From positions 90,619 to 154,618 of the forward strand of contig OZ241323.1 in the NCBI GenBank assembly GCA_965199685.1: a stretch of DNA of 64,000 bases, in the 5' to 3' direction. The translations under genes and the position numbers were made by a program. Shown here piece after piece: positions 17,676 to 44,469 of the stretch. The notes under the pieces are model-generated. The model had not been told where the DNA came from. It did no database searches and saw only the letters and a program-made list of their open reading frames with translations. Origin of the DNA: an uncultured candidatus Porisulfidus sp. GTDB lineage: Bacteria > Pseudomonadota > Gammaproteobacteria > Poriferisulfidales > Oxydemutatoraceae. How positions within the stretch are numbered: position 1 is the stretch's first letter; the number at the start of each line of letters is the position of its first letter.

Positions 17676-17768
17676 ACCGTATTCCCAAATTTAGCACTCA
17701 TCTTAAAGTCAATTTTCCTGATGAGCATTTTTATGTAAAATCACGACCGCCGAAGTTCTGAGACTATT

Positions 17769-18101
17769 TTAGAGGAATTTAATCACTCCGACGGCAATGC
17801 TAACAACAATTACAATCAGCCAACGTAAGTACTTCAACTCAGTTCGTATCTCTCGTATGTCGGCCTTTACTTCCGCTATATCAGTCTTTACCTCTGCTAC
17901 CTCTGCTTTTACCCCCGCTATATCAGCTTTGGTTGCCATATCTTTGATATCAGCTTTCGTTTCGGCTTTTAGTTCTATGATATCTGTCTTAGTTGCTATG
18001 TTCTTTGAACTCGCAACATCGGCTACGGCTTCTTTTGCCTCGTCATGATTGAGTCCTAATTTAGTAAGTGCATTGTATAGTGCGATTTCTGACATCTCCA
18101 T
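17769..18101 (-). CDS. DUF1640-like small coiled-coil protein with C-terminal TM anchor (copy 1 of 3)
   Basis: IALYNALTKLGLNHDEAKEAVADV..ATKTDIIELKAETKADIKDMATKADI.. periodic K(A/T)DI repeats then a hydrophobic tail. Paralogs at 38928..39251 and 44895..45191. Confidence 0.6.
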   Translation of the reverse strand: MEMSEIALYNALTKLGLNHDEAKEAVADVASSKNIATKTDIIELKAETKADIKDMATKADIAGVKAEVAEVKTDIAEVKADIREIRTELKYLRWLIVIVVSIAVGVIKFL

Positions 18102-18382
18102 TTACTCCTATGTTTATATATGTGCAGCATATCACATACCGACACTTGGTTACCCCGCAAGTACCCAAAGTCATCAGTGGCTGTCGCCGGGGTGACCTTG
18201 AGCTATCTGCGTTCGCAAAGTCGCTTGGTATGGATGAACAAGCGGAACCAGTTTACGGATAGATCTGCTGAAATTGACTGGTTTGGTTTCAAAGAGGCAG
18301 TGAAAACTACATTTTTAGACATCTTCAAAGTGAAAGTGACCAGAAGTGGCAAGACAAAAATAGAGGAGATATGTATCTGGCA

Positions 18383-18958
18383 TTATTCAGCAGGTGCTTT
18401 AAGTAAGGTGTCTGGGCTTCTATCTTCTTCTCCTGCTTGCAGTTCTTCTGGCTTATCAAGAAGTTTAAAACTTCCTCCCATTTCTATAAATACTGGCCCA
18501 CGCCAATTCCCATCCTTAGCTAAAAATATAGCTTCGACATACGTTGCTGCAGGAGCAGTAATGAGGCTACATCTTTCTAGTGCATTCCAAGGGCAATTCT
18601 CTTCTCCATTTTCATGAGAAATTAGTCTTTCTCTAATTGGTAAGGTATATTCTTCTGCTATTTTATGAAATATGACCTCTGTATTTTCAAAATAGCACCC
18701 TTCTTCATTAGAAACGAGTTCAAGAACCCTAGGAGTTCCGGTGTATATTACTTTTTTATTTTCTACTTGAGAGCACCGAATCCTATGAAGCTTTTCTATT
18801 CCTTCTTTGGTGCAAATAATAAATCCATCACCACTTTCAATTGGGTATTTATATCTTGTGTTTTTATGCTCTGCTATAGCACTAAGAGAGAAGAGTAGAA
18901 GAGAAAGAGCTAGTAAAGTGCTTTTAAAAAAATTTAATGAAAACAAGTAGTTAAGCAT
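18383..18958 (-). CDS. Secreted 4-Cys domain protein, short form (family copy S1)
   Basis: Signal peptide MLNYLFSLNFFKSTLLALSLLLFSLSAIA, then a ~150-aa domain with conserved C (IICTK), EEGCYFE, NCPW, ERC. Conserved upstream region with GGAGAAAAG RBS. Confidence 0.7.
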   Translation of the reverse strand: MLNYLFSLNFFKSTLLALSLLLFSLSAIAEHKNTRYKYPIESGDGFIICTKEGIEKLHRIRCSQVENKKVIYTGTPRVLELVSNEEGCYFENTEVIFHKIAEEYTLPIRERLISHENGEENCPWNALERCSLITAPAATYVEAIFLAKDGNWRGPVFIEMGGSFKLLDKPEELQAGEEDRSPDTLLKAPAE

Positions 18959-19065
18959 AATTCCGCTTTTCTCCTAATGGATAACAATAGCAATGTAGTT
19001 AGAATACGATATTTGATGTGAATAGTCAATTTATTGTACGATGCTTGTCAACCCAAAGTTGAAAT

Positions 19066-41435: not shown

Positions 41436-42256
41436 CAATATGTATCTGGCATTATTCAAATCAGGTGGTGCAAGCAGTTGTAAACTGCCTCATCAGGCTA
41501 GCCTGCACTCCCCTACAGGAGGAAAATACTTTTATCACCTCTGGTTCAGTGGTTAAATCTTCATTTTTGCCATCTGTAACCTTGCTTTTTTTGATAAACG
41601 GCTGAAAGTTGCCACTGTATCTGACCTCATAAGGCAGGTCCATATAGATACATTGCACCTTCTCTACCATATTTTCCTTTTGTAGCAACGAATTGGGGAT
41701 TATATAGTTAACTTGACAAAACCACAATTACACAATAACGAAACTTTACAAACTATCCATATATTATAATAAATAATACCTTTTTAATAATCAAACTACG
41801 TGAGCCATAAAGCACAATTAGAGAAAAAGTTTATAATGCGCATAGGTGGAAAACAGCAAGCCTATGATTGAGGAAATGAAATAGCCATTAGTTTGTCAAG
41901 TTACCTATATAGTTCCCAACGAATTAATTATTAGTGAGGAATCATTGGCGATCAGACGACTGCTCCAATTACAGGCATGCTTAAAACTCTATTGCCTGCC
42001 GAAGCGGTATATCTGCGTCATTGTCAAACAAACTGCCTTGCTTATTGTTGCCGTTGGTTTTTCTCACCGCTTCTATAATTGTCCGTATTCGGATCGTTCT
42101 GAGGATTTACCAAACCTACTCGTGAATTGTTTTTTCTCTCCTCTTTATCGTGTGGAATAAGCCTTTATTTCTCGCTTTGATTTCTTTCTGGGAAGCAAAG
42201 TTCTACCCTTTTTCCAATTTGATAATGAGCATTACACACATCGGCAAGCAAAATTT

Positions 42257-43171
42257 CTATTCTTGTTCGTCGGGTTTGTAAATCATACCCGCTTCGTCAC
42301 GACTTGCCTTGCTATCATCAAGCCGGGTTTTGTAAAATTTAGTTTTGGTACTATAAATAGCACCCTTCCATTTAGTTTTTTCATTATCAATAGATTCTCT
42401 CAAGTCGGCTCCTCTCAAATCAGCATCACTCAAATCAGCATCATTTAAGTTAGTTCCACTTAAAAAAGCATTAGTCAATTTAACTCCGTTCAAATAGGCA
42501 TTATTCAAATCAGCTTGTACCAATCTGGCTCCAGATAAATTCAAACCACTTAAGCGAGCACCTTTTAAATGTATCCTATCTAAGTCTATTTTCTGAGTAA
42601 TAAGGTCTATTCTTTCCTCTCTTTCCTTGTCAAGGTCGGGGTCTCTTTTTAGATATGCGAGTTGTTCAAGTGCTATTTTTGCCAATAAATATCTTTTTTG
42701 CTTGTCTTCTCCTTCCTGTGTTGCTTCTGTCAACATTCGCGTACATTCAAACAGAGTACTATTATTCGTATTTTCTTTGGTTTTATCTATTTGTCTCTGA
42801 ACATCGTGGGTTCTAAATAACCAAAGTATAAAAAAAGTGGGTAGACCTAGAGCTAGAATAGTTAGGCTACTGTGCAGGACAGAATTGTCGGAAAAGAGTT
42901 TATCAAAAAAAAGATTATACACACCAGACGCTAATACCATTCCTAAAATACCTGCCAAAATTAAAAAGATTTTTCGATATTCTAGGATCCATTTGATAAC
43001 ATTAGTTCTATATAACAAAAAAACAAAAAGCAAAGAAGAAACTATAAAACTAGCTGAGATATGGAAGGAAATTACAATATCATCTGAAATCCTATCAAAT
43101 AGGTATACTAACGATAATATAAACCAAATTATTATAAATATGCCAAAAGTAATCTTTTTTCTCTGCATCAA
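42257..43171 (-). CDS. Pentapeptide-repeat membrane protein
   Basis: Four N-terminal TM helices. C-terminal A(D/N)LxG-type pentapeptide repeats (GARLSGLNLSGARLVQADLNNAYLNGVKLTNAFLSGTNLNDADLSDADLRGADLRE). Confidence 0.7.
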   Translation of the reverse strand: MMQRKKITFGIFIIIWFILSLVYLFDRISDDIVISFHISASFIVSSLLFVFLLYRTNVIKWILEYRKIFLILAGILGMVLASGVYNLFFDKLFSDNSVLHSSLTILALGLPTFFILWLFRTHDVQRQIDKTKENTNNSTLFECTRMLTEATQEGEDKQKRYLLAKIALEQLAYLKRDPDLDKEREERIDLITQKIDLDRIHLKGARLSGLNLSGARLVQADLNNAYLNGVKLTNAFLSGTNLNDADLSDADLRGADLRESIDNEKTKWKGAIYSTKTKFYKTRLDDSKASRDEAGMIYKPDEQE

Positions 43172-43365
43172 TGCCTCCCTGGGTTTTAATTCCCGTTGTT
43201 GATTGTGGTTCGTAATAAGCGTGCAATGCTACGCTGAATGTCTGATAGTATAAACCATTTGGCCTGAAAAACCATAATTAAGTGGCGCAAGCGATTGAAA
43301 ACCACCCCGTCAGGCGAAGCCTGACACTAATGGTTGCTAAATTCATATATTTAATGGAGGAAAAA

Positions 43366-44229
43366 ATGAACAGAGAAAACATGATGGCCGATATACAAAA
43401 AGACTGGAGCGAAAACCTCCACTGGGAAAATATCAAACGCACCTGCAGTGTGGCAGATGTCGTCCGCTTGAGTGGTTTGGTGCACAGAGCGTATACTGAT
43501 GCGCGTTTGGGGTCGGAGAGATTATGGAACATATTGAAGGAAGGATCTCAAACAAACAAAGTTGTCAGGCTGTCTTTGATTATTATTATTTTTACCCTAG
43601 TCGTAGCGATAGGTGGTTGTAGCACTACCTCCCAATATCAATACAATCAAAGAGAGAGGTATAACTATGAGGAAGGAGTAGAGCAAGACCAGGAAGAGGA
43701 ATCTAAGCAGGATCAGAAAGCAGCTGAGCAAGGAGATGCGTCTGCTCAAGATAATCAAAGTGATAGGTATAACGATACAAATACACTTTACACCAGTGGA
43801 AAAGGTGGATTTATTATTTGTACTAAGAAAGGAGTAGAAGAGCTTCGTAATATCCGCCTCTCTCAAATAGAAAATAGAAAAACAATAGATCCTGCGGATC
43901 CTAGTATTCTCGAGCATATTTCTGAAGACGAATGCATTTTTAGAGATACAAAAGTTCTATTTGACAGAATAGCCACCGAGTATAACCTTCCAGCTAGTGA
44001 AGGGATGGTTTTTGATCCAGCAGGGGATGAGCCTTGCCTTTCAAATCCAGCAAAAAGATGTAGCCTAGTCAATACTTCTCTCGTGCAATATGTGGAGTCT
44101 TCATTTTTAGGTGATGATGGAAGTTGGTATAATGGATTTGTAGAAATGGGAGCTAGTTTTAAGCTTCTTGATAAGCCAGAAGATACGCAAGCTGGAGATG
44201 GAACTCCCAATAATACTCTATCTCAATAA
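43366..44229 (+). CDS. Membrane-anchored 4-Cys domain protein, long form (divergent copy L6)
   Basis: Same N-terminal module and TM. More divergent C-terminal domain. Truncated leader upstream. ORF track starts at 43282. Confidence 0.65.
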   Translation: MNRENMMADIQKDWSENLHWENIKRTCSVADVVRLSGLVHRAYTDARLGSERLWNILKEGSQTNKVVRLSLIIIIFTLVVAIGGCSTTSQYQYNQRERYNYEEGVEQDQEEESKQDQKAAEQGDASAQDNQSDRYNDTNTLYTSGKGGFIICTKKGVEELRNIRLSQIENRKTIDPADPSILEHISEDECIFRDTKVLFDRIATEYNLPASEGMVFDPAGDEPCLSNPAKRCSLVNTSLVQYVESSFLGDDGSWYNGFVEMGASFKLLDKPEDTQAGDGTPNNTLSQ

Positions 44230-44469
44230 CTACCAAGCTGCACTTTTAGCTAGCCTTACAGAACTCCAAGAAGTGCTTGATAGGCTAAATAGTATTAAAG
44301 AGAAAACTAGAGTAGAGCTATCCATGCTACCAAATAATGCCACTCCCAAGCTAGCTATTATTCCACCTACAAAGCCTGTAATTCCAGTCCATGAAAGTCA
44401 GGGCTGTTATTGCAAAATGCAATATCCACTATGCGCCATAAAATTTATGAAGACGGTAGGGTGGAATAG

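Follow-up and report, generated by a model that had tools for sequence, protein, structure and literature searches.

A diversified family of exported four-cysteine proteins with an isocitrate lyase-derived leader in an uncultured candidatus Porisulfidus sp.

Organization of the locus and the four-Cys domain

The 64,000-nucleotide stretch of contig OZ241323.1 (assembly GCA_965199685.1, positions 90,619 to 154,618 of the forward strand) from an uncultured candidatus Porisulfidus sp., referred to here as the window, contains a multigene family of exported proteins that share a domain of ~150 amino acids (aa) with four conserved cysteine residues (the four-Cys domain). An EF-G scan placed the organism among the Gammaproteobacteria, the matches listed having an identity of 74% or less. 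A six-frame listing of open reading frames (ORFs), together with tblastn and hidden Markov model (HMM) scans of the whole window, gave exactly 10 copies of this domain, all intact and divided into five long forms, all on the plus strand, and five short forms, distributed over both strands. The initial annotation had counted at least 11 paralogs, among them a "Sel1 variant" at 29163 that has the leader and linker of the long forms but lacks the four-Cys domain. The two architectures that it described, one anchored and one secreted, were confirmed as an anchored and a soluble form, and the same ~150-aa domain is present in 10 of 10 copies. The genes concerned are the following, with coordinates counted from the first nucleotide of the window.

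19668-20534, plus: L1, long form; isocitrate lyase (ICL)-derived leader (aa 1-64), transmembrane (TM)/lipobox segment ..LVVAIGGC (Cys85), acidic linker with half a Sel1 repeat, four-Cys domain
23789-24664, plus: L2, long form, in the second tandem unit
27696-28550, plus: L3, long form; leader/domain junction resembles the signal-peptide end of S4
34861-35727, plus: L4, long form
43366-44229, plus: L5, long form, the most divergent copy (domain ~50% aa identity)
18383-18958, minus: S1, short form, Sec-type leader and domain; divergent to L1; followed by a gene for a small coiled-coil protein (cc)
21010-21552, plus: S2, short form
25142-25690, plus: S3, short form
33579-34118, minus: S4, short form, divergent to L4
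39675-40250, minus: S5, short form; directly 3′ of a full-length IS481-family element; followed by a cc gene
29163-30773, plus: Sel1-repeat lipoprotein gene; ICL-derived leader and linker, 11 Sel1 repeats, no four-Cys domain

The term tandem array, which had been used for this region, holds for ~2.3 units of 4.1 kb that are truly tandem, but not for the whole, in which both strands carry copies, with insertion sequence (IS) elements and unrelated genes between them. The plastic region is bordered by a cytochrome c peroxidase gene (16203-17474) and by rpsL (52702). No tRNA gene or Rfam family was found in the window, and hence neither a tRNA-linked island signature nor a known riboswitch in the long 5′ leaders.

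The four cysteines are kept in all ten window copies and in relatives of only 28-38% identity, as had been proposed for the window copies from inspection. In the numbering of the structural model described below, C59, C93, C101, R32, Q35, G89, Y111, W123, and E130 are invariant, and C20 is nearly so, being absent only from the truncated protein P0049. The domain had not been recognized at first reading, and profile searches of Pfam, NCBIfam, PHROGs, PADLOC, and all PDB sequences likewise gave no match to it; a Foldseek search of the PDB returned noise only. Close matches numbered 32 among 5.8 billion non-redundant proteins, and 18 clusters were obtained among 1.84 billion representatives. When the family motifs were used to scan the GTDB representative genomes and the JGI metagenomes, no relative turned up. 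The domain family is new, has a narrow distribution, and adds to the bacterial envelope proteins an undescribed exported domain that has no detectable relative among solved structures.

AlphaFold2 (AF2) modeling with a diverse alignment gave a pLDDT of 82.8 and a pTM of 0.73 (five models, 79-83; core near 90), superseding a run with close paralogs only, which was unstable (five models, pLDDT 39-77). In the model, two short strands and a long helix precede a C-terminal half that is mainly β, with the N-terminal α/β part packed against an SH3-like small β-barrel. Because the cysteines are placed at strand ends (17-20 and 59-62) and in a hairpin (91-93 and 96-107), the model suggests disulfide bonds C20-C59 and C93-C101, and the proteins are probably disulfide-bonded.

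The isocitrate lyase-derived leader and the origin of the long forms

Residues 1-64 of the long forms align to residues 5-68 of ICL with an E-value of 1.4e-11 (phmmer against PDB sequences), and the NCBIfam model PRK15063 matches the same leader with an E-value of 9e-11. The match covers only profile positions ~3-66 and does not reach the ICL family cut-offs (41 bits versus 562 in NCBIfam, and 18 versus 26 in Pfam), and nothing of the ICL catalytic domain follows the leader. The conserved cytoplasmic N-terminal module of ~65 aa described in the initial annotation is thus a shared module of 64 aa, with its identity as an ICL fragment being newly found. Unlike in AceA, the N-terminal fragment stands alone and is succeeded by a membrane segment with a lipobox; because this segment replaces the catalytic barrel, the leader-bearing proteins are not ICL enzymes.

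The leader is followed by K/R-rich residues, a hydrophobic stretch of 17 residues ending in AIGGC, and a very acidic linker. By inspection, the lipobox pattern [LVI][ASTVIG][GAS]C (PROSITE PS51257-type) is present as ..ILTLVVAIGGC(S) in 6 of 6 leader-bearing genes, with its cysteine at position 85 and not within the usual ~15-35, from which it is displaced by the 64-aa ICL-derived extension. Since P0045, a distant homolog, has a short lipoprotein signal of the canonical type, MTKSFRNALLTVAAGAAFITGGC, ending in ITGGC, the simplest reading of the long-form leader would be a lipoprotein signal that has gained an enzyme-derived N-terminal extension. The possibility that translation of the long forms starts internally, giving ordinary lipoproteins, was considered and rejected, as no conserved ATG, GTG, or TTG codon with a Shine-Dalgarno sequence occurs near the lipobox. 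Because of this, and because GGAGG lies 4-5 nt 5′ of the ATG in all six leader-bearing genes, the ICL-derived fragment is most likely translated. With respect to transcription, TTGACA-17-TATGCT boxes are conserved ~160 nt 5′ of three long forms, and a strong Shine-Dalgarno sequence (AGGAG/GGAGG) precedes each gene. The earlier suggestion that each copy has its own promoter is therefore plausible, but promoter-like matches are no more numerous in the region than in shuffled sequences.

The short forms start with a hydrophobic leader ending in SAIA, ALSA, or ASA, which by inspection fits a Sec signal. For the long forms, the positive-inside rule would place the four-Cys domain outside the cytoplasm. 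Only Sec or lipoprotein signals are seen, in a Gram-negative cell, and the default location is therefore periplasmic or at the inner face of the outer membrane; the surface location considered in the initial annotation is not supported.

Three types of passenger carry the same leader: the four-Cys domain, an array of Sel1 repeats, and, in a metagenome sequence, the beginning of a TPR protein. Its dN/dS is mostly ~0.1-0.45, and up to 1 in comparisons with the Sel1 gene, over too few sites to decide on selection. Whatever the function, the locus is a clear example from nature of a gene born by fusion, in which a 5′ fragment of an ICL gene serves as an extended lipoprotein leader on at least three passenger types. 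In having a long conserved N-terminal extension before an ordinary signal-peptide core, this leader resembles the extended signal peptide region (ESPR) of autotransporters, from which it differs in originating from a captured enzyme fragment, in preceding a lipobox, and in having no type V passenger.

The Sel1 gene at 29163-30773 contains 11 repeats above the Pfam threshold (PF08238, E 3.9e-126) and shares its N-terminal 125 residues with the long forms, after which it runs into the repeats. The long forms score no Sel1 repeat in Pfam and retain only half of one (KAAEQGDAAAQ): their linker closes with KAAEQGDA.AQ, the sequence that also opens the first repeat of the Sel1 gene. At the L3 junction, the sequence GAT GCC ACG GCT AGA GAA TGG TTT ACA AAT ACA resembles AAT GCC TCG GCT AGG GAC TGG TAT ACA AAT ACA of S4, a segment that comprises the end of the signal peptide and the start of the mature part, and the Sel1 gene holds GDASAQ at the corresponding position. 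On the basis of the half repeat in the linker and of this S4-like junction, the long forms are chimeras in which the 5′ part of a Sel1-lipoprotein gene was joined to the mature domain of a short form where the two are briefly similar, near the signal-peptidase site; the Sel1 gene at 29163-30773 is the likely donor. The junction of L1, L2, and L4 differs from that of L3, resembling another short-form subtype and containing an A8 tract, so that either chimera formation occurred more than once or conversion later crossed the junction.

The A8 tract at the linker/domain junction lies at 20049-20056 in L1 and at the equivalent position in L2 and L4. A metagenome protein, P0055, is frameshifted at the equivalent tract, in a contig of 3x coverage, which could reflect phase variation or a homopolymer error.

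Block duplication, gene conversion, and the out-of-frame tail

Self-comparison of the window resolved the repeated units and the mobile elements that accompany them.

19389-23314, plus: tandem unit A, comprising promoter region, L1, IS481 deletion derivative, S2, and IS3 copy
23525-27455, plus: tandem unit B, 92% identical to unit A overall
20461-20952, plus: IS481 deletion derivative after L1, with equivalents at 24582-25082 and 35648-36169
40267-41355, minus: full-length IS481-family transposase gene (family confirmed by protein search against plasmids)
25985-26803, minus: IS3-family transposase OrfB, at the end of unit B

In addition to the two units, the block 18392-20943, with a divergent short/long pair and an IS481 derivative, is 87% identical to 33540-36136, and the block 17688-19026, with a cc gene and a short form, is 91-95% identical to 38847-40318. 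The IS3 copy of unit A (21847-22610) is split, and an ORF after L5 (44168-44482), which includes the L5 tail described below (44228-44482), is similar to the IS481 derivatives in its first part only. The array grew by segmental duplication of multi-gene blocks bounded by IS3 and IS481 elements, and the locus exemplifies IS-mediated block amplification. Furthermore, a metagenome contig from a close strain (L083) is 99.8% identical around L5 and has different neighbors there, which means that the array has been rearranged between close strains, differing in content and order.

An IS256/Mutator-family transposase gene and an IS3-type copy lie at 45761-46717 (plus) and 46784-47680 (minus), at the position that in the strain contig L090 is taken by a short form, flanked by the TM-repeat gene and cc. 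A second copy of the same IS3-type element, 90% identical, is found at 3665-4337 (3616-4337, minus).

Comparison of units A and B separates a constant frame from a variable domain: promoters, leaders, IS elements, and spacers are 94-100% identical, with identity falling to 69-88% exactly over the two domain-coding stretches. The same dips recur in other block pairs and against the strain contig, and between L1 and L2 the synonymous divergence (dS) rises from 0.057 in the leader to 0.28 in the domain. A pairwise homoplasy index (PHI) test on the ten copies gave an observed value of 0.529, against 0.583 ± 0.009 in 2000 permutations (p=0.0005). The divergence is thus mosaic rather than uniform, and the pattern first noticed by eye, of a mosaic domain between near-identical flanks, is real and statistically supported. 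Along the gene, the nearest paralog switches every 60-120 nt, including between long and short forms, and S2 is 100% identical to its strain ortholog over the first ~300 nt, beyond which a diverged 3′ patch follows. Taken together, the PHI result, the nearest-paralog switches, and the strain-level 3′ patch support gene conversion between paralogs, including exchange between long and short forms.

Of the two processes named in the initial annotation, gene conversion or diversifying selection, the former is thus supported, whereas the latter is not demonstrated, with pN/pS at ~0.7. The median pairwise ω is 0.69 and pN/pS is 0.71 over 20 sequences; local pN/pS exceeds 1 in only two short stretches (model residues ~53-72 and ~78-92), which suggests diversifying selection at some sites. 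As synonymous divergence is also raised in the domain, its segments have a history unlike that of the flanks, and a domain dS well above that of the flanks points to recombination rather than positive selection alone. All ten ORFs are intact despite dS values of 0.2-0.7, and the integrity of the ORFs and of the key residues at dS up to 0.7 argues for maintenance of the genes by continued selection.

All long forms end in ..TLSQ at a CAA-TAA-C stop, and reading on after a one-base skip at this stop gives NYQAALLASLTELQEALDR..GLSMLQ.., a tail that can be aligned to those which distant homologs carry in frame (E 3e-6). In L1, L2, and L4, the tail is out of frame at the same site. The two open continuations are as follows.

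28549-28728, plus: +1-frame continuation after the L3 stop, ancestral tail (NYQAALLASLTELQ..GLSMLQ..), ~59 codons open
44228-44482, plus: +1-frame continuation after the L5 stop, ancestral tail, ~83 codons open

The L3 and L5 tails differ by an in-frame 3-nt indel, and pN/pS in the +1 frame of the tail is 0.52 (p=0.015), compared with ~0.8 in the other two frames. The tail may be a relic, left by a one-base insertion that conversion has spread in recent times, or else the product of frameshifting; +1 frameshifting at the shared CAA-TAA-C stop, by which the tail would be read, is possible as a further layer of the repertoire.

Neighborhoods of the family and its putative function

Several further genes recur near the family, in the window and in contigs carrying its relatives.

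50582-51613, minus: DUF900 α/β hydrolase, candidate lipase-type toxin, without signal peptide
48016-50526, minus: 836-aa multi-TM protein with 31-aa repeats, 56 bp after DUF900
36853-38835, plus: 660-aa paralog of the 836-aa TM-repeat protein, inside the array
17769-18101, minus: cc gene, 110-aa coiled-coil protein with a C-terminal TM segment
38928-39251 and 44895-45191, both minus: further cc copies in the window
L081, 3366-3692 and ~11009-11443; L090, 10848-11087: cc outside the window

The TM-repeat paralogs have a multi-TM N-terminus, arrays of 14-aa or 31-aa repeats (..LSTQT..LL..), and a common C-terminal globular part, and neither 36853-38835 nor 48016-50526 belongs to a known family. 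The gene pair of short form then cc, with cc immediately 3′ of the short form, recurs five times; the cc protein has weak PHROG matches only, to spanin/XhlA-like proteins. In L090, DUF900, a TM-repeat protein, a short form, and cc follow one another in the same orientation, and DUF900 is orthologous in the window, L083, and L090.

A second lineage is represented by the 2.1-Mb circular contig L093, in which a Tle1-like phospholipase gene (6220-7458) and an IS3 insertion are followed by five co-oriented genes that combine the four-Cys domain with Sel1 repeats. In its strain variant L084, two such genes lie beside the Tle1-like gene, whose homologous 412-aa product matches Tle1-like proteins in Pfam with an E-value of 8.5e-41, and a DUF900 gene. 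The paralogs of this lineage, which start with a Sec-type or lipoprotein-like N-terminus, show 42-69% identity in the domain, as against 88-97% in the Sel1 part, so that the second lineage independently presents the pattern of a constant frame around a variable domain. A module that is hypervariable in two lineages behaves in a way that usually marks a molecular arms race.

Lipase-type genes were found near the family in 3 of ~6 independent contexts, namely DUF900 in the window, L083, and L090, a Lipase_3 (class-3 lipase) gene in L081, and Tle1-like and DUF900 genes in L084 and L093; none of the neighboring lipase-type proteins has a signal peptide. A place next to a tle-type effector gene is seen in L093 and L084, where the Tle1-like gene is 5′ of 2-5 paralogs, and in part in L081 (Lipase_3) and L090 (DUF900), and not in the window, L082, L085, L089, or L091. 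L082 and L091 come from an organism that is less closely related, and at both loci the family gene has as its divergent neighbor a gene for a conserved protein of ~400 aa (6733-7944, minus, and 8697-9995, minus, respectively); these partners are 72% identical, consist of an N-terminal TM segment and charged low-complexity or disordered sequence, and have no known domain and no PDB relative. In L085 and L089, the family genes adjoin hisG.

Type VI lipase immunity (Tli) proteins have Sec or lipoprotein signals and sometimes occur in several copies, with Tli1 being an outer-membrane lipoprotein and three Tli5b proteins being Sel1-like-repeat proteins (PMC13133936). The literature on DUF900 is almost empty, and the domain occurs in 69% of the archaeal homologs of cinquedea, an archaeal secreted bactericidal phospholipase (bioRxiv 10.64898/2026.06.10.730825). 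On account of the lipase-type neighbors, the Tli literature, and this DUF900 homolog, the reading ranked first is that the four-Cys proteins form a diversified periplasmic repertoire of immunity proteins or inhibitors, most likely directed against antibacterial toxins of the lipase/phospholipase type, to which a probability of roughly 0.42 is assigned. The proteins would reside in the periplasm, soluble or, given Ser at +2, tethered to the outer membrane, and would act as a repertoire of binding or inhibitor modules. These modules would most likely be immunity proteins that neutralize Tle1-like, DUF900, and class-3 lipase toxins, and shuffling between paralogs would widen the range of toxin variants recognized. 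If the link to lipase toxins is true, the family would represent a new kind of immunity protein, with a breadth of immunity that stems from gene conversion among complete paralogs. The most specific version of this proposal, in which a new-fold module is kept hypervariable by shuffling among complete paralogs in two lineages, within a constant frame that is the ICL-derived lipoprotein leader in one and Sel1 repeats in the other, as a germline combinatorial repertoire against polymorphic lipase toxins, is rather improbable as a whole.

The resemblance to Tli1/DUF3304 and Tli5b extends to small, predicted periplasmic proteins with a Sec or lipoprotein signal (N-termini by inspection), as expected of immunity to type VI secretion system (T6SS) lipases, to a link with Sel1-like repeats, and to the presence of several paralogs beside a lipase effector gene, as in L093, where five paralogs follow the Tle1-like gene in the same orientation. 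Several points weigh against an immunity function, however. The four-Cys proteins have no similarity in sequence or fold to known Tli families, with DUF3304 not matched, nor to any solved immunity protein, and they differ from Tli proteins in the gene conversion that diversifies their domain and in the ICL origin of their leader. In none of the loci examined did genes for type VI or any other secretion appear, T6SS structural, adaptor, and VgrG genes included. None of the ten window copies adjoins an effector gene, the closest gene of the lipase type (DUF900) being ~6 kb past the last copy, and the large TM-repeat protein after DUF900 could itself be the partner of DUF900. About half of the independent contexts have no lipase gene but instead the ~400-aa partner (L082, L091) or hisG (L085, L089). 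The position of Cys85, far beyond the usual 15-35, makes lipidation of the long forms a prediction only, and a pN/pS of ~0.7 could equally reflect relaxed constraint.

The alternatives fall behind immunity in the order of a surface or host-interaction role, an envelope role with IS-driven drift, and targeted hypermutation. The first of these, a variable surface or secreted family (as suggested in the initial annotation) for interaction with a host, phage, or predator in which conversion provides antigenic or receptor variation, is unlikely, though several points speak for it: the mosaic domain within conserved flanks, the variation in array content and order between close strains, a neighborhood with many IS elements and many repeat proteins of the Sel1, TPR, and pentapeptide types, like that of host-associated bacteria, a leader that also serves Sel1 and TPR passengers, and the A8 tract at the L1, L2, and L4 junction with its metagenome frameshift variant. 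Families diversified by conversion include Neisseria pilE/pilS, the Borrelia vlsE cassettes, Helicobacter bab/sab, and the Mycoplasma variable lipoproteins. As in these families, the 5′ leader and flanks are constant, the mosaic mature region is exchanged, and copy content depends on the strain. Unlike in those families, all copies are complete and separately startable, with no evident phase switch, and are predicted to be periplasmic rather than on the surface. Indeed, no silent, promoterless partial cassettes were detected by tblastn or HMM, each of the ten copies having an ATG, a strong Shine-Dalgarno sequence, and a signal, and there is no single expression site accompanied by silent cassettes. 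Neither an invertible promoter nor a long tract of simple sequence was detected, nor any surface-export partner that would carry proteins with Sec or lipoprotein signals beyond the periplasm. A surface role also leaves unexplained the lipase-type neighbors and the Tle1-like gene 5′ of the five-gene array.

Somewhat less probable again is an envelope role unrelated to toxins, for instance as a partner of the cc and TM-repeat proteins, with copy number and divergence arising from IS duplication and relaxed selection. The fivefold recurrence of the short form-cc pair, the TM-repeat paralogs in and beside the array, the IS-bounded duplications, and the overall pN/pS of ~0.7 are all consistent with it, as are the frameshifting of some copies in related contigs and the loss of the ancestral C-terminal tail from all long forms. 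Drift leaves unexplained, however, the restriction of divergence, synonymous changes included, to the domain when the adjacent leader, promoter, and IS DNA of the same block is 94-100% identical, as well as the recurrence of such domain-specific variability in a second lineage, and the intactness of ten ORFs and their key residues at dS up to 0.7 speaks for continued selection. Targeted hypermutation, by a diversity-generating retroelement or similar, would account for variability sharply limited to one coding segment, but is highly improbable, as no reverse transcriptase-like ORF or domain occurs among the window ORFs scanned and the variation consists of blocks common to paralogs (PHI, nearest-neighbor switches) rather than point changes private to single copies.

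An immunity or inhibitor repertoire thus remains the favored proposal. As putative small periplasmic inhibitor domains in anchored and soluble versions, the four-Cys proteins also resemble the lysozyme inhibitors MliC/PliC, with which they share no homology (Pfam empty) and whose families are neither multi-copy nor mosaic. The class of phenomenon, an exported multigene family with a shuffled variable module that is probably immunity-like, is known; what is new is the domain, the ICL-derived leader, and the diversification of complete paralogs.

Two further features of the window may be mentioned. A 741-aa ORF inside the array (30890-33115, plus) has no match in Pfam, NCBIfam, PHROGs, or PADLOC and carries a C-terminal motif, PMHPAYGAGHAVVAG, which may resemble that of PAP2/vanadium-haloperoxidase-type enzymes. 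Two large TPR-repeat proteins (4724-6784, plus, and 7572-9833, minus) form an inverted pair with ~70% DNA identity, and both start with an HTH_Tnp_1 domain of the IS3 OrfA type, being another example of a gene fragment fused before a repeat protein.

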